Origin: a virus
Taxonomy: Duplodnaviria > Caudoviricetes
Direction: 5' to 3' (one strand)
IMG/VR virus record: IMGVR_UViG_3300036770_005357
DNA length: 64,000 nucleotides
A program made the position numbers and the translations under genes. The notes beneath the pieces were generated by a model. That model had not been told where the DNA came from. It ran no database searches and was given only the letters and a program-made list of their open reading frames with translations. Shown here in pieces: positions 6,001-35,424 of the stretch. Within the stretch, counting starts at the first letter, position 1, and each line of letters begins with the position of its first letter.

Positions 6001-6847
6001 TTATTCCAGTTGTATTGCTTGCTAACGCTAGATAACCGAAAGCATTATTAGCATTTGTAGTGTTGTTTAGTAAAGCACCGTGCCCAAATGCGTTGTTATT
6101 ATTACCTCCTAAATTAGCTTGTAATGTATCAACTCCGAATGCGTTATTGTTTACTCCAGTTACATTTACTTTTAATGCATAAGCACCGAAAGCGTTGTTA
6201 AAATTTGCATTGGAACTTGCTAATGCTGCGGATCCAAATGCTGAATTTAAAATACCAGATGTATTTGTTATCAAACTTTGATGTCCCACAGCAGTATTTG
6301 CATAACCTGTAGTATTACCACTTAATGCTTGTCTACCAACTGCGGTATTTGCATAACCTGTAGTATTGTTATACATTGCATAACTACCGAAAGCACTATT
6401 ACTATTACCAGTTGTATTGTTGTATAGAGTGCCTCTACCAAATGCTGTATTTAATGTACCACCTGTATTAAAATTTAAAGCACCAGCGCCTACAGCAGTA
6501 TTGCTTATTACAACACCACCACCTCTACCAACTCCTATACCTTGAATTACAGCAGATTGACTTACATATAAATTTCCTTGTACTGATAATTTAGAACCGG
6601 GACTTGTTGTACCTATGCCGATATTACCACCGGTTTCATACATTACGCTATTGCCAATAGAATTGGCAGCCGTAAACTTAGGAATATAATTTGTTGTACC
6701 CGCTATATTTGTGGTTACTATACTACCACTGAAGCTTCCCGTAAAACTTTTCGCTTCTACACTGTTCTCAAACCTTACAAAGCTACTGCTTACAGTGATA
6801 TTACCGCTGCTTGTTATAAAGCTATTTTTTATTTGAATTTTAGCCAT
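1..6847 (-). CDS. Giant fibre/adhesin-like protein with ~17-aa N-x-A-F-G-x-x-A-L-x-x-N-T-T-G repeats (3'-partial, >2,280 aa)
   Basis: ATG at 6847 (MAKIQIKNSF...). The frame reads as repeats wherever I translated it and is in phase with the codons at the left edge (...NQALYQNT). Missing from the ORF track, presumably because it has no stop in the window. Contains GTTNYIPKFT and GNIGIGTTSP fibre motifs before the repeats. Confidence 0.88.
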   Translation of the reverse strand, partial: MAKIQIKNSFITSSGNITVSSSFVRFENSVEAKSFTGSFSGSIVTTNIAGTTNYIPKFTAANSIGNSVMYETGGNIGIGTTSPGSKLSVQGNLYVSQSAVIQGIGVGRGGGVVISNTAVGAGALNFNTGGTLNTAFGRGTLYNNTTGNSNSAFGSYAMYNNTTGYANTAVGRQALSGNTTGYANTAVGHQSLITNTSGILNSAFGSAALASSNANFNNAFGAYALKVNVTGVNNNAFGVDTLQANLGGNNNNAFGHGALLNNTTNANNAFGYLALASNTTGISNSAFGHKTLLNNTIGQGNSAFGYIALASNTTGNVNSAFGVGALRRNTSGVRNNAFGGNALQYNLIGNRNNAFGFYALSKHTGDSNNAFGYLALASNTTGAVNSAFGHQTLYQNTSGTFNSGFGYFALRLNRTGGSNTAFGAKSLTKNVSGFRNNAFGIYALYNNLTNNNSAFGSYALASNTTGVANSAFGLQALKNNTIGNFNSAFGYLALASNTTGISNNAFGNQSLKNNTSGNYNNAFGNLALTSNISGYKNNAFGYGALNNNTIGNNNNAFGYYALNKNTTGGGNSAFGYKSLMFNTIGTNNSAFGNNALNKNTTGASNTAVGVGSLYSNTSGINNVSVGVGALGLGTPVNRNNAFGFYALRNNSTSNNNAFGYLALASNTTGAQNSAFGHQALRANTISGSNSAFGYKSLYTNKGDSNSAFGNQSLKNNTTGRANVAFGSTTLYKNTFGKYNVAIGSAALFNNTTGGRNTAVGLNALFSNTTGVLNNAFGMQSLNNNLVGDNNNAFGYQTLLNNTTSGNNAFGNFALASNTTGHRNSAFGHRALQANTISSSNSAFGYKALYTNRGKQNSAFGDIALASNTTGNFNSAFGQAALMFNTFGNYNVAVGLQALQQNSTGTNNTALGTNALVFNTSGIRNVAVGRSALTNNTIGNNNNAVGFQALYNNTTSNNNAFGYMALRSNTTGTKNSAFGHRALNANTISGSNSAFGYLALYTNRGYSNSAFGSLALANNITGYENAAFGYLALQLNTTGYWNSAFGSHALRLNTSGNNNIAFGRGALYANTIGIKNTALGNFALVTNTVGNGNTAVGSQTLVNNVSGNNNNAFGFYALVANTTNNNNAFGYKSLTNNTTGHGNSAFGHLSLASNTTGNVNSAFGHKALQNNTIGFGNNAFGYLALASNTTGIVNNAFGNSALRNSTSGVQNAAFGHYALYKNTVGSNNNAFGINALQSNTIGARNNAFGVNTLRFNTTGVNNSGFGYRTLYSVTIGNNNNAFGYRAGHNIVDAANNNAFGTLALASNQTGGSNNAFGRNALQANTTNNNNAFGFYALASNTTGTANSAFGHQALQNNTTGVQNSAFGYQSLASNTIGVRNNAFGDRALVNNTTGTRNNAFGTQALTNNTSGQYNNAFGNGALNSNSIGNNNNAFGNVALQNNTTNNNNAFGAYALRSNTTGYRNSAFGHRALQANTISSSNSAFGYGALYTNIAGGNSAFGAFALRSNTTGTQNNAFGYAALRNNTIGRNNNAFGNGVLQNNTTGILNNGFGNGALQNNTIGDSNNAFGDWALRDNISGINNNGFGRRALTDNTIGSNNNAFGRSALSSNTTNANNAFGSYALASNTTGVQNSAFGHLTLQNNTTGAGNSAFGYKALISNTTGNNNNAFGILALASNTFGYQNNAFGVAALRFNTTGRNNIAIGRSALQNNTVGNNNNAVGTAALYNNTTSNNNAFGYYALKNNTTGQRNSAFGHRALNANTISSSNSAFGYKALYTNTAANNSAFGSFALASNTSGRYNTAFGNYALQDNTIGTRNSAFGYAALTNNTAGVRNNAFGLAALRDNTIGSRNNAFGELSLVVNTTGDNNNAFGYKALGSNTTGTQNNAFGHLALTSNQIGVRNNAFGHQALYNNTTNNNNAFGYRALASNTTGTANSAFGHQALQNNITGDNNSAFGHRALASNTTGRYNTAFGAYALNKHTSGLYNIAIGGASQFDNLTGNNNNSIGLSALRLNTAGNNNNAFGMYALRANTTNNNNAFGYFALASNTTGYKNSAFGHQALASNTIGNFNSAFGYQSLKVNTTGVRNNAFGNSALLNNTTGVDNNAFGHYASIFNTSGTRNSAFGTNALRANLVGNFNSAFGYEALKNNTTNNNNAFGYRALASNTTGINSAFGHLALKNNTIGTRNSAFGYGSLIANITGNINSAFGHLALASNVLGSSNNGFGRLSGFKNISGSANNSFGYKALYNNITNNNNAFGNYALASNTTGNRNSAFGNQALYQNT

Positions 6848-11679: not shown

Positions 11680-14600
11680 TTACGCGCTTAAGTTACCAAA
11701 CATATACCATTCATTGGTACCTACTTTAACCAAACTTGCTACACCATATCTAGCATTTATTTTATACCAGTTGTTTGCTGTTCTTAATTGAACACCGCCA
11801 CCTGAACTACCTGTTATTGTGGTTTGACCTGCACCATATTGTACAATATCTACTTTGGTACCTACTTTGAATGCTACTTGTGCATTTGTGGGTACATTCA
11901 CCGTATTAGCTGTAGCTACATTCATTTCAATAAGTTTACTTGCATCTGAAAGTGACATTGTATAGTTACCTGTTCTTCTATTGAATGTTGCATAATCTGT
12001 AAGTGAACCGCTTACTTCTAATTTAGATGATGGATTTGTTGTACCTATACCAATTTTACTTCCGGTTTCAAATATAATACTATTACCTACAGCTGTTGTA
12101 CTTGTAAATTTAGCGACATAGTTGGTTGTACCTGATACTGTACCACTTCCACCACCGCCTGCGCTAGCGAGTGCGTATGAAGCGGTACCAAAGAATCTGC
12201 CTTTACCATTGGTTGTAAACATGTTACTACCAGATACTCTAGTAGCATATAAACTACCATTCACTTCTAATGGATAAGCAGGACTCGTCGTTCCTATACC
12301 TACATTACCATTGCTAATTATAGACAATTTATAAGAATTGTTAGTATATAGATGTAATGGATTAGCTCCTATTGTACCCACTTCAAATGTTGTTGATGAA
12401 GCTAATATACTACCAATTCTCGTACCAGATACACCCATATCAAAATAAGGACTTTGACCTGTGTTTGAATTGATTTCAATACCGGCACTTGAACCTGATA
12501 TACCTAAAACTTTACCGTAATTTCTAGCAAAAATATCAGGACTACTTGTACCTATACCTACATTACCACCAAACACTTTATTAAATGATGTTTGTAAACT
12601 ATCTTCGGATATACTTGTTGCAAATGTTGTAATAGATCCACTATCAAATGTAGAATACCGGCTATTACCAAAAACATCGGTTTGTATAGTCCAATTGCTA
12701 TCTTGCAAATAACCATCATCACCATTTAGTTCAATATAAAGATTTCCAGCAGTTGCACTAGAAGCAGATACATACGAATTTACAACGACATTACCAACTT
12801 TTTCAACGGTTGTTAAATTAGTATTAAAATTATATGTATAACCTGAATATCCAACATAATCTAAATAATTTACACCCGAAGCATTATCTGCCATTGCTAT
12901 GGCTTTTACTTTAACAATAAAATCAGCACCGGCACCTGCTTTTGTAAACGGTATAGTTATTCTTATAGGATTATTTGTAGTTACAGTATTGACTTTACTA
13001 TAAATAATTGTTGAATCTAAAGTCATCAATCCAGCAACATGTAATTTGTTTTTTGGACTTGTTGTTCCTATACCTATATTACCATCACTTTTAATATATA
13101 ACATCGCTGCGGTTGTTTCAGCGTCGGCAGAAAATCTTATATTACTTGTTCCACCATAACCGGTTTTTATATTCAAATCGTTATCAGATCCATGATTAAC
13201 ACTATTATAATATCCATACCACCCTTTAAATGTACCGGATGCATTCATTAAACCTAAATGAGCATTTACACCCTTTATGTTAATTGTACCTACAGATCCC
13301 GCACCAGTACCTACAACTTGAAGTAAAGTACTTGGACTACTTGTACCTATACCAACATTACCATCACTGGCAACCCTCATTTTTTCAGTACCATTAGTTC
13401 CCATCGTCATAATGTTTGAAGCGTTTAATACCAAATTATTACCCATTCTAATTTGAGTATTTGTGACGGGCCCTTGAATTGTACTTTCGTCTTCTGATAA
13501 TTTTATTGCAGCTACTCCACCGGAATTTGATTGAACTATATGTAATTTAGCACTCGGACTTGTTGTGCCTATACCAACACTACTACCTGTAAGAGTCATT
13601 ACTATAGTACTCGCATTACCAGTATAGAAATTTAATCCTCTATCAGCACTACCAATCGTTTGTATATATGACATCTTGGTAGTATCAGAACCCATTTCAA
13701 CAGAATAAGAATTACTACTATTACCAGATATTCGTATAGCTTTTTGACCAGCACCATATATTTGAAGACCACCACCAGCTATAGTTGGACTTGTTGTACC
13801 TATACCTATATTACCGCCTGTTGTTGATGTTAAATTAATATTACCACTTCCATTATAAATGTATAGAGTTTCATCACTCGCAAACCTAATTGCTGCACCA
13901 TCATGTTGTCCTATCCAAAATTCTCTGCCTAGAGTTGTGATTAATGCCGATCCACCAGCAACTGACGCTGCATTATAAGAACCACCTCCGATTGATGGTA
14001 TATATCTGATATAGCTAGTATTATCTTCTACAGTCAAAGCAAATAAATCACTTATTACAGTTCCCGTATATACATTTAATTTAGCAGCAGGACCTGTTGT
14101 ACCTATACCTACATTGCCATCAGCAGCAATTCTTAACCTTTCACTACAAGTTCCACCGGATGTAGTGTAAAACTTCATATGACTTGGTGCACCACTTGCA
14201 GTAGATGAACTTACTACCAAAAAGGCACTTCCAGTCAAATTATTTGGCGCGCCATTTAATGGTCCCAGTGTACCAATATTACCAAATGCTATAGTATTGT
14301 TACCATTAGCAGCATTTGCAACGAACAAATTACCTTTTAAATCTAATTTTGTAGCAGGACTTGTTGTACCTATACCAACATTACCACCACTAGTAACGCG
14401 TAACTTTTCACTAAATGTTCCCGATGAATTTGCTGTATGTATTCTAAATGTGCCACTTTCGTCACCTGCCGTACTATTTTCTTTTACACCATCAATTGCA
14501 ACGAAATGTGCTACAGCACTATTAGAAGTTTTGTATCCCTTGAACAGTATTGCACCACCAACATTTGTAGTAGCATTTGCTGTATCTCTCAATACCAATG

Positions 14601-33276: not shown

Positions 33277-33951
33277 ATGACTTTTTTATTTACTGACAAA
33301 GATTTCGAAAATGCTAAATCACATGACAAGTTGAATCTTAAATGTAAAAATTGTAACGGAACATTTTCTTCTACCAAGAAAGCGATTAATTTTGAATTAA
33401 AACATAAAAGAGGTAGATTACAATTTTGTACAAAAAAATGTTTTGATGATAAACAAACTAATAAAAATCCTGTTAATTGTAAACAATGTAATAAAATAGT
33501 TTTAAAAATACCTAGTCAACTTAAAAGGTCTCCGAATACATTTTGTTCTTCTTCTTGTTCCGCAACTTATAATAATACACATAAAAAATTTGGTACTAGA
33601 AGATCTAAATTAGAAAAATGGTTGGAAGAAAAATTGATTCAGTTACATCCGAATTTAGTTTTTCACTTTAATCGTAAAGACACTATCAACGCCGAATTAG
33701 ACATTTATATACCATCTTTAAAGTTAGCATTCGAGTTAAATGGAATATTTCATTACGAACCAATATATGGAGAAGAAAAACTACATTCAACTCAAAATAA
33801 TGATAAAAGAAAATTCCAAGCGTGTTTAGAACAAAAAATTGAACTTTGTATTATAGATGTTTCCAAAGAAACATATTTTAAAGAACATATATCAAAAAAA
33901 TATTTAGATATTATAAATAATATAATAAATTCTAAATTGTTGAATTCTTAG
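33277..33951 (+). mobile_element. Free-standing zinc-ribbon + PD-(D/E)xK/Vsr-like putative homing endonuclease
   Basis: Repeated CxxC motifs, then RSKLE...ELDIYIPSLKLAFELNGIFHY; inserted antisense within the tRNA operon. Confidence 0.78.
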
Positions 33952-34009
33952 TTACAGATATTAACTGTATGCAATAGTCACTGCGTGCAAGTGATTCAAC
34001 TTGACTATC
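33939..34009 (-). ncRNA. HDV-like (theta-type) self-cleaving ribozyme at the 3' end of tRNA-Met
   Basis: P1 GATAGTC/GACTATT with a G.U first pair; P2 GTTGAA-TC/GA-A-TTCAAC; P3 ACT/AGT; L3 TGCACGC; P1.1 GC/GC; P4 TACAG/CTGTA; J4/2 ACTAA. Confidence 0.85.
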
Positions 34010-34084
34010 TTGCAGCTACAGGAGTCGAACCTGCTATCGCCTGGTTATGAGCCAGGAATGATATTTCCGTTTCACTCAGCTGCG
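34010..34084 (-). tRNA. tRNA-Met(CAT), initiator-like, CCA not encoded
   Basis: C1xA72 mismatch; CCTGG-CT CAT AA-CCAGG; T-loop TTCGACT; ends at discriminator A73. Confidence 0.88.
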
Positions 34085-34282
34085 ATTGAAAATTTAAAAG
34101 AACTAAAATTGTAAATTGGTGTTGGGTATTTTTATTGAATACTTAATTACCCAACGAATCAAGTATACCATGAACTAACCCCGCAACCAAGAAATTTTTA
34201 AGAGAATTTCCAACTCTGGGAGTTTTTGGTTATATACTCCTCCACCAGTCAGTTTTGAATTTGGATGTCTGACAACCAAAAG

Positions 34283-34357
34283 TGGCAGTCCTGCGGAGAT
34301 TCGCACTCCGGTCTCTTGGATGAAAGCCAAGAATCCTAACTACTAGACGACAGGACC
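34283..34357 (-). tRNA. tRNA-Glu(TTC)
   Basis: CTTGG-CT TTC AT-CCAAG; T-loop TGCGAAT; G73; CCA. Confidence 0.92.
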
Positions 34358-34367
34358 ATTTAAAGCG

Positions 34368-34510
34368 AACTGGTAACCCGATTCGGTTTTTTACGAACCG
34401 GTTTCCTACTGTCTTTAGGCGGATGATTTATGTTTTCTCTTCTCACGTCAAGCGGTTATACAATAGACAGTGTATAACTTTTTGTCATCCTCTCTAGATA
34501 ATTACCAGTT
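34368..34510 (-). ncRNA. Unassigned multi-stem RNA with predicted kissing loops
   Basis: 9-bp closing stem and four internal helices; loops CTGTCTAT and AAGACAG are complementary over 6 nt. Confidence 0.65.
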
Positions 34511-34515
34511 TAAAT

Positions 34516-34590
34516 TGGTAGGGCGCCACGGTAACGATCCGTGTTCTACTGGTTAAAAGCCAGTTGCTTCACCGTTAAAGCTTGCACCCC
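34516..34590 (-). tRNA. tRNA-Lys(TTT)
   Basis: ACTGG-CT TTT AA-CCAGT; T-loop ATCGTTA; CCA. Confidence 0.92.
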
Positions 34591-34598
34591 ATTAAAAA

Positions 34599-34611
34599 TG
34601 TTAAAGAACTA
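34599..34611 (-). promoter_or_regulatory. boxA-like antitermination element
   Basis: TAGTTCTTTAACA directly upstream of tRNA-Lys. Confidence 0.6.
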
Positions 34612-34762
34612 AACTTACAGAAACCGTGTAACTTTTGTATCCCTAAAGTTACAGAAAAGGGTCAGACTCACACTGAGGTGATAAGTTGTTTTTTCGTTAA
34701 ACTTATAACAATCGGTTGAGTTTTTAGTTTTCGGTATCGGACTCAACTAACCTTATGTAATC

Positions 34763-34790
34763 ATCTTACCAGAACTTTTCGTTTTGTCAA
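34763..34790 (-). promoter_or_regulatory. Sigma70-type promoter
   Basis: TTGACA-N16-TAAGAT with TG extension. Confidence 0.7.
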
Positions 34791-34916
34791 CCGTCTTTTT
34801 TCTTTTTCTTTTTGGCGATCCCCTTTGATAGAAGGTCAAGGCGATTCCTGCACACTTAGATGCTCTGGAGGAGTGCTACTCCCGCCATGCTAGAAAAAGA
34901 ACTTACTATACTTATT

Positions 34917-34944
34917 ATCCTACCACAAACTTTTCAAAGATCAA
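34917..34944 (-). promoter_or_regulatory. Sigma70-type promoter
   Basis: TTGATC-N16-TAGGAT with TG extension. Confidence 0.55.
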
Positions 34945-34995
34945 GTATTTTTTGTAGTTATAAATATATAAATGTTCAAAAAAATACTTGTAAAA

Positions 34996-35077
34996 ATGGC
35001 GCTTCGGGAGGGATTTGAACCCACATTTACATCCAATTATGCACTTAGAGCTTAGAAGACTCCGCCATTACCGAAGC
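34996..35077 (-). tRNA. tRNA-Arg(TCT)-like gene lacking the D-arm
   Basis: GCTTCGG/CCGAAGC acceptor, G73, CCA; only 7 nt between acceptor and anticodon stems; loop CT TCT AA; 22-nt variable region. Confidence 0.65.
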
Positions 35078-35094
35078 ACGATCACTTATTGAAA

Positions 35095-35424
35095 TTACTG
35101 CTTATCCTTCTTTAGTTCATCTTGTACTGACTTACCCAGTTCTGTCAAGCCAAAAAGTGGCTCTCCATTCTTATCATAACCAACAATCTGTACAAGTCCT
35201 TGCTTGACAAGATCATCCACAGTTTCCTTAACCTCCATAAGAGAAGCCTCTTCATAGATTTCATTGGCTTCAGCTTCGTCACAACCAGTTTCCTTCATAA
35301 TGTACTCAATGGCAGATTGTCGTTCACACTGCTTATCCAGCTCATCTACATTAAGATTTGCGCAATGGTTAAGCACTTGATCAATTGTACCGGTAAACAT
35401 ACCACCGTGTTCAGAAAATTCCAT
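35095..35424 (-). CDS. Hypothetical protein (winged-helix-like C-terminus)
   Basis: 109 aa; LVKQGLVQIVG...LTELGK pattern. Confidence 0.65.
   Translation of the reverse strand: MEFSEHGGMFTGTIDQVLNHCANLNVDELDKQCERQSAIEYIMKETGCDEAEANEIYEEASLMEVKETVDDLVKQGLVQIVGYDKNGEPLFGLTELGKSVQDELKKDKQ

Follow-up and report, generated by a model that had tools for sequence, protein, structure and literature searches.

A small folded non-coding RNA of a previously uncatalogued family, RNAC-like in design, in the tRNA-Lys/tRNA-Glu gap of phage tRNA arrays

An RNA gene between tRNA-Lys and tRNA-Glu

The window, that is, the whole stretch of 64,000 nucleotides analysed here, belongs to a 173-kb IMG/VR virus record that is estimated to be 73% complete. 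On its minus strand, the gap between a tRNA-Lys and a tRNA-Glu gene holds a 143-nt RNA gene (34368-34510), which we designate X and which is present as one copy in its own genome. Its constant upstream neighbour is tRNA-Lys(UUU) (34516-34590, minus strand) and its usual downstream neighbour is tRNA-Glu(UUC) (34283-34357, minus strand). The CCA encoded by tRNA-Lys is separated from X by the 5-nt spacer AUUUA (34511-34515, minus strand). The 10 nt between X and tRNA-Glu (34358-34367, minus strand) are made up of a 3' tail of X, CGC, and the array's usual UUUAAAU spacer, without CCA. In the family described below this tail is variable (CGC, UAC, CAA or CAU) and is CCA in none of the members. Each of the two flanking tRNAs of the window encodes its own CCA and has normal ends.

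A sigma-70-like promoter (TTGACA, 16 nt, TAAGAT, with a TG) lies upstream of tRNA-Lys on the same strand (34763-34790), and the same promoter is also found ahead of tRNA-Lys in a relative, L097. No terminator-like site was found on this strand from the promoter to X. As judged from the sequence, the promoter at 34790-34763 is likely the start of a Lys-X-Glu transcript. The original prediction had placed X within a tRNA transcription unit, and the shared strand of X and both tRNAs, the upstream promoter and the lack of an intervening terminator are all consistent with this. Of note, a 170-nt leader with several hairpins separates the promoter from tRNA-Lys (34591-34760, minus strand); it is identical in another relative, L172, and about 30 nt long in the closer relative L097.

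The fold of X is a four-way junction formed by a closing stem P1, a compound arm P2+P3, and the hairpins P4 and P5, all on the minus strand. P1 comprises RNA positions 1-10 and 134-143 (34510-34501 and 34377-34368) and pairs AACUGGUAAU with GUUACCAGUU over 10 base pairs, the final one being U.G; its 3' strand is joined directly to P5, just as acceptor stem and T arm adjoin in a tRNA. P2 (RNA 21-26/85-90; 34485-34490 and 34421-34426) pairs GGAUGA with UCAUCC. P3 (RNA 33-40/49-56; 34455-34478) is a hairpin of 7-8 bp, GUUAUACA-CUGUCUAU-UGUAUAAC, joined to the far end of P2 by a 6-nt linker. Its loop L3 is CUGUCUAU (34463-34470), and a purine-rich linker (34427-34454) leads from P3 to the 3' strand of P2. 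P4 (RNA 92-95/103-106; 34405-34419) reads CCUA-AAGACAG-UAGG. P5 (RNA 110-117/126-133; 34378-34401), in the position of a T arm, reads CCGGUUCG-UAAAAAAC-CGAAUCGG and contains one G.U pair. The topology is cloverleaf-like. The D-arm position is taken by the 70-nt compound arm, the linker 3' of the first strand of P1 measures 10 nt (10-12 nt in the family), and the linkers between P2 and P4, P4 and P5, and P5 and P1 measure 1 nt, 3 nt (AAA) and 0 nt, respectively.

All five of these helices had been listed for the minus strand in the original prediction, and ViennaRNA gave an identical fold, the minimum-free-energy structure being the same as the centroid structure. Only the closing stem needed correction, since it had been described one pair short. 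The folding energy of X is -38.2 kcal/mol, as compared with -23.8 ± 3.5 kcal/mol for 200 dinucleotide shuffles (z = -4.1), none of which was as stable.

The four-way junction and the position of X in a gene slot behind the usual UUUAA spacer are reminiscent of tRNAs (RF00005) and of viral tRNA-like structures. X differs from them by the 10-12 nt linker after its closing stem and by having no D loop, no T loop and no CCA. The loop of P4 is AAGACAG in the window and a 6-nt AGACAG in most members of the family, and most members have no U33 loop of 7 nt in the anticodon position. Although P5 directly adjoins P1, it does not qualify as a T arm, since it comprises 7-8 bp and carries a variable loop of 8-10 nt without the UUCRA consensus. 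The length measured by RNase P and by the CCA-adding enzyme is 12 bp. The stack of P1 and P5 would amount to 17-18 bp, which, together with the non-T-arm character of P5, makes recognition of X as a tRNA doubtful. ARAGORN made no call in X, and RF00005 (gathering threshold 29 bits) gave no match overlapping 34368-34510 at E ≤ 10. More generally, Rfam 15 contained no match to X even at E ≤ 10, in keeping with the earlier statement that X could not be assigned to a known family.

Conservation and covariation in the X family

Homologues were retrieved by scanning metagenome contigs with the spacer plus the closing stem as a pattern. Among the 18 stretches returned, 12 were true homologues, bringing the family to 13 copies including the window, with 9 distinct sequences of 133-143 nt. 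A family covariance model (R2) scored members at 122-170 bits, and the X of the window at 145.9 bits (E = 1e-35). All 13 copies lie on the tRNA strand in the Lys slot, one per genome. The junction ACCA-AUUUA-AACUGG behind tRNA-Lys(UUU) is identical in every copy whose contig covers it, and it adjoins at least four quite different tRNA-Lys sequences. tRNA-Glu(UUC) follows X in every copy except that of L171. In L171, which has no tRNA-Glu, a conserved pseudoknot region lies directly 3' of X, and the tRNA-Lys(UUU) upstream of X (L171:2131-2208) is divergent and is not called by ARAGORN.

Other searches yielded no further members. A covariance model built from the single X of the window (R1) had no match in about 50 related loci or in whole contigs. 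The closing-stem palindrome had 56 matches in IMG/VR, close to the number estimated for chance, and none was X-like by BLAST; two further IMG/VR patterns produced no additional X member. A pattern scan of GTDB genomes gave 3 matches, none of which was confirmed by the family model, and BLAST of X against the phage collection returned the flanking tRNAs only. Synteny through a neighbouring PlcP-like gene led to 19 loci, none with a tRNA array, and a search with a tail-fibre-like protein gave remote matches only. When open reading frames were clustered for 12 loci with X, 9 with the type A or B inserts described below and 21 with neither, no X-specific protein family was found across lineages; the best X-associated cluster, which is GNAT-like, is also present without X.

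Covariation was assessed on a model-fitted alignment of the 9 distinct X sequences, with 500 shuffles as controls. Standard pairs occupied 96.6% of the cells, against 23-39% when the partners were slid by 1-3 columns. Eight pairs vary on both sides, and they are distributed over P2, P3, P4, P5 and the contact between the loops of P3 and P4; none of the 500 shuffles reached the observed covariation score. In P2, two G-C pairs are replaced by A-U, both partners having changed, in 6-7 of the 9 sequences. P3 has three covarying pairs, GUU/AAC versus ACC/GGU, each version being found in 4 sequences. The third pair of P4 is seen as U-A, C-G and G-C, and the seventh pair of P5 changes from C-G to A-U in 3 sequences, the family keeping 7 pairs, an invariant G.U and a variable loop in this hairpin. 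The 10 bp of P1, in contrast, are invariant in all 9 distinct sequences. An alignment from phage metagenomes, to test covariation of the loops, had been proposed as a check of the original prediction; the 12 homologues show compensatory changes in four of the five helices, which supports the fold.

About half of the alignment columns are invariant. They include the A-rich strands beside P2 (CAAAAA and AAA), G91, GGAAACCGGUU and AAUCGGGUUACCAGUU. Such a combination, junctions and loops invariant and stems covarying, is what catalytic or ligand-binding cores typically show. Because the family is shallow, part of this invariance may reflect mere recent ancestry. The linker between P3 and P2 varies among members; in two lineages its place is taken by a clean hairpin of 5-6 bp.

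These findings indicate that X is an RNA gene whose small, folded, non-coding product belongs to a family not catalogued before.

Several other readings of the same nucleotides were considered and rejected. A hammerhead-like core is suggested by the presence of GAUGA, GAAAC and GUC, but GAUGA is base-paired and covarying, and there was no match in Rfam. The sole recurrent reading frame starts from the invariant AUGACA and would encode peptides of 10, 12, 10, 29 and 23 codons. The covariation in P3 alters the amino acids of this frame and follows pairing, not codons, so that X is under no coding constraint and has no conserved frame. The likeness of P1 to the anticodon stem of the window's tRNA-Lys (ACUGG/CCAGU) is a coincidence, since P1 is invariant and the anticodon stems of other carriers differ. 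Finally, two weak sigma-70-like matches inside X do not qualify as internal promoters: their total equals the expectation from shuffles and their spacing is lost in the L175 and L169 lineages.

We also considered the contact between the two loops. In the window, L3 and L4, the loop of P4, are complementary over 6 nt, CUGUCU (34465-34470) facing AGACAG (34409-34414). Runs of this length were found in 0.2% of random loop pairs matched in size, and shuffling the two loops themselves produced them in 1.3% of cases. We scanned all pairs of unpaired 4-column windows of the alignment for complementarity in at least 7 of the 9 sequences, and this returned two overlapping matches only, both of which correspond to the L3:L4 contact. 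All five core pairs, CUGUC/GACAG, are preserved in 7 of the 9 sequences, the motif CUGUC being kept in L3 in 7 and GACAG in L4 in 8; only the window and L172 have the sixth pair, U-A. Changes in both loops have turned the central G-C pair into A-U in the L169 lineage. In L171, an uncompensated U-to-A change leaves 3 contiguous pairs. The geometry seems plausible as well, since a stack of P2 and P4 of about 11 bp would allow P3, folded back, to reach the loop of P4. The predicted kiss thus gains from being the only extra conserved complementarity and from one compensated change, and loses from one uncompensated mismatch, all within 9 sequences. We regard it as probable, that is, as supported though not proven by the sequence comparison.

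The Lys|Glu slot in related arrays

The contents of the slot were surveyed in 29 related IMG/VR loci, identified through a conserved block downstream of tRNA-Glu, and in a later locus, L138. Contigs whose virion protein is 89% identical to that of the window have the same array without X; in these X-less close contigs, tRNA-Lys is followed by 7 nt (ATTTAAC or TTTTAAC) and then by tRNA-Glu. Since most of the closest relatives have just this 7-nt spacer, X is an optional cassette. Overall, the slot holds a bare spacer of 6-7 nt in 13 loci and an insert of 214-218 nt in 9 loci (eight of the 29, plus L138). Its other contents include blocks made up of a promoter, an RNA and a tRNA, a tRNA-like gene of 130 nt with a long stem, and a homing-endonuclease gene. 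In one pair of loci with near-identical flanks, the slot is empty in L099 and filled in L101.

The 214-218 nt inserts fall into type A (L101:125-338, L107, L119, L123 and L138) and type B (L109:11710-11923, L113, L117 and L125). They share with X the slot, the strand and a closing stem AACUGGUAAU...AUUACCAGUU. Their 5' portion, roughly 25 nt, resembles that of X (AACGAAG, AAAU), and the same junction, CCAGUU-CA-UUUAAC, is found on their right-hand side. Their interior, however, exceeds that of X by about 70 nt and resembles it neither by BLAST nor by the family model, and no T-arm-like hairpin abuts their closing stem. Going by these sequence features, the insert may be a larger sister RNA of X, known in two variants.

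Comparison of the window with L172 shows how such arrays change. The leader and X are 99-100% identical, tRNA-Lys and tRNA-Glu have been replaced, and similarity stops 3' of X. The identity of leader and X on either side of swapped tRNA genes suggests that the array exchanges cassettes at TTTAA-type spacers, X being one of them. Thus, non-tRNA RNAs too would travel by cassette swaps at the short spacers of these arrays.

Several unusual genes were encountered in the related loci. In L126 (about 6338-6470), tRNA-Lys is directly followed by a further oversized, tRNA-like RNA gene of this slot, about 130 nt long, in which a canonical T arm, GUGGGUUCGAAUCCCAU, abuts a 12-bp closing stem, UUGAAAAAGUUG/CAACUUUUUCAA. 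Downstream of tRNA-Lys genes that are 93-97% identical, L084 (12441-12696, minus strand), L079 (2223-2487) and L085 (13091-13288, minus strand) have another region of about 150 nt with multiple hairpins; one of these is T-arm-like (UUGAGG-UGCGAUC-CCUCAA), and a promoter-like block common to these contigs comes next. L077 has a tRNA-like gene of about 80 nt (12327-12413, minus strand) in which the acceptor stem (7 bp), the T arm and the encoded CCA are present but the D stem is missing. In the place of an anticodon loop it has CUGUCUA, which is Asp-like (GUC) except for U37, and ARAGORN made no call there. A 459-nt gap between tRNA-Thr and tRNA-Glu in L085 (8152-8610, minus strand) is filled with many short hairpins with CCGCAAG-type (GCAA) loops, after which comes a small hydrophobic open reading frame. 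In L115 (12958-13901), a tRNA-Glu-like gene not called by ARAGORN and then a free-standing endonuclease-like open reading frame are found between tRNA-Lys and the pseudoknot region.

Possible role of X and comparison with known phage RNAs

Taken as a whole, we think it likely that X is a non-coding RNA of an uncatalogued family, carried by a group of large uncultured phages as an optional cassette of their tRNA arrays, co-transcribed with its neighbours, folded into a cloverleaf-like structure with a kiss, and acting in trans as a stable RNA. The promoter at 34790-34763 would drive its transcription along with that of tRNA-Lys and tRNA-Glu. In the folded RNA, the invariant 10-bp P1 would stack on the 7-8 bp of P5, and P2 and P4 would form the other stack. 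P3 would branch off the far end of P2 and fold back so that its CUGUC[U] loop pairs with the [A]GACAG loop of P4, turning the arm into a closed ring. Host tRNA-processing nucleases could then cut the flanking AU-rich spacers (an RNase E-type enzyme and possibly RNase P at the base of P1), and the compact, exonuclease-resistant X would accumulate as a stable species of about 145 nt. We propose that X would be a trans-acting RNA whose invariant junction core most likely offers a binding platform, or a decoy, to a tRNA-handling protein. A processed, stable, trans-acting RNA is our best guess for its function.

We considered the possibility that X acts only in cis, as a folded spacer that directs or separates endonuclease cuts or shields the 3' end of tRNA-Lys and is then degraded, never becoming a free functional RNA. 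The fixed ACCA-AUUUA-X junction beside at least four tRNA-Lys sequences, and the AU-rich spacers on either side of X, would fit such a module. Yet most relatives process Lys-Glu with a plain 7-nt spacer, so that the module is not needed, and a spacer requires no invariant loops, invariant junction core or conserved kiss; we consider this reading unlikely. A small self-cleaving ribozyme of a new class, trimming the neighbouring tRNA transcripts like the theta (HDV-like) ribozymes behind other phage tRNAs, would account for the invariance of about half of the columns, junctions and loops included, next to covarying stems. Tertiary loop-loop contacts are common in small ribozymes. Furthermore, tRNA-linked ribozymes do occur in phages (PMC10879173). 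Against this, models of hammerhead, twister, twister-sister, pistol, hatchet and HDV-like ribozymes, run over 33900-35200, gave no match at E ≤ 10, trimming is superfluous between two tRNAs that encode CCA and have normal ends, and X offers no evident candidate cleavage site. We hold a ribozyme to be very unlikely. The purine riboswitch aptamers are also multi-helix junctions closed by a loop-loop contact, and by analogy the conserved junction of X could be a ligand-binding aptamer or a riboswitch-like sensor. The next gene, only 10 nt away, is tRNA-Glu, which leaves no expression platform and no downstream coding gene, and no riboswitch of Rfam matched X, so that a sensor is highly improbable.

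Two explanations remain. If X were a selfish mobile cassette of the miniature inverted-repeat type, P1 would represent terminal inverted repeats serving DNA mobility and the fold would be incidental. Invariant 10-bp inverted termini, the same as P1, are indeed present and are common to the 214-nt insert with its unrelated interior, TTTAA-type repeats occur on both sides of X, and X is present or absent at one site with near-identical flanks, as seen for the insert in L099 (empty) and L101 (filled). Yet all copies sit in one slot, one per genome, rather than at several sites with target-site duplications. The flanking 'repeats' are the ordinary inter-gene spacers of the array, and tRNA genes move likewise as cassettes, as the window and L172 show. 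Four internal helices have compensatory changes and the kiss is conserved, which points to selection on the RNA. Accordingly, we assign very little probability to a mobile element. A decayed tRNA gene, or a functionless chance fold, would explain the cloverleaf-like topology in a tRNA slot, and in our reading the P5 strands GGUUCG/CGAAUC resemble a T arm whose two halves were separated by an insertion. This is extremely improbable, since X has no tRNA-model score and no ARAGORN call, and its helices, unlike those of a pseudogene, are kept by covariation over 9 sequences.

With a trans-acting stable RNA as the preferred reading, the identity of its target can be considered. Phage tRNA-Lys genes are known to counter host defences directed against tRNA-Lys. 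The strict linkage of X to a phage tRNA-Lys(UUU) raises the possibility that PrrC- or PARIS-type nucleases directed against tRNA-Lys are its targets; such a connection between X and these defences is tentative and, in our estimate, improbable.

Phage tRNA clusters are customarily annotated as tRNAs plus junk spacers. Here, the Lys-Glu spacer is instead a conserved RNA, apparently with a tertiary lock. Beyond the helices and the loop contact of the original prediction, the present analysis adds the cloverleaf-like topology, the status of X as an optional cassette absent from the closest relatives, and a likeness to RNAC of phage T4. RNAC is a stable RNA known since the 1970s.

Two kinds of small structured RNA from phage tRNA clusters lend themselves to comparison. 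Theta ribozymes, which are minimal HDV-like ribozymes, adjoin phage tRNAs (PMC10879173) and, like X, are embedded among phage tRNA genes. They fold into a nested double pseudoknot, whereas X is a four-way junction without a match to the HDV family and follows a tRNA that encodes CCA.

RNAC and RNAD are products of the T4 tRNA region whose roles are unknown (PMC3014915, PMC9697503), and T4 RNAC accumulates in infection as a stable processed RNA, as seen by Northern blot (PMC9697503). RNAC (species 1 RNA, rnaC; NC_000866 70908-71046) measures 139 nt, as compared with 143 nt for X, and likewise lies in a tRNA cluster on the tRNA strand. Its layout is that of X, a cloverleaf-like four-way junction whose closing stem runs into the 3' hairpin without any linker. 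A long compound arm takes the place of the D arm, and a short hairpin that of the anticodon arm. In both RNAs the long arm ends in a tip that is complementary to the loop of the short hairpin (UUGACG with CGUCAA in RNAC, CUGUC with GACAG in X). We aligned rnaC from T4 (L098:1409-1547, minus strand), an Enterobacter phage and a Kosakonia phage (L184:61-200 and L185:40-190, the two other sequences aligned). The tips were invariant in these three diverged T4-like phages while the stems change and covary, which suggests, at the level of sequence, a conserved kiss in RNAC itself.

The two RNAs also differ. A canonical T arm (CCGGG-UUCGAAU-CCCGG) is present in RNAC, whose closing stem is short and imperfect, whereas that of X is invariant over 10 bp and X has no T-loop consensus. 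RNAC is the last member of its cluster, preceded by tRNA-Arg and RNAD, whereas X is always directly behind tRNA-Lys(UUU). R1, the model made from the X of the window, returned only noise on the T4 tRNA region, with no match to rnaC. X is therefore an RNAC-like stable-RNA design of phage tRNA clusters that is unrelated to RNAC in sequence. The recurrence of this design in an unrelated family suggests that selection keeps the design itself. One could go further and place X, RNAC and other kissing-loop RNAs of phage tRNA arrays in a single, widespread functional class, framed like a tRNA but with the 'decoding' half replaced by a kiss-locked ring, and serving as decoys or inhibitors, made by the machinery of tRNA processing, of host factors that attack or handle tRNAs; we put this forward as a speculation with a low probability. 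X nonetheless provides a comparative handle on the old question of RNAC, with a junction core, a kiss and a linkage to tRNA-Lys(UUU) that are all features open to mutation and test.
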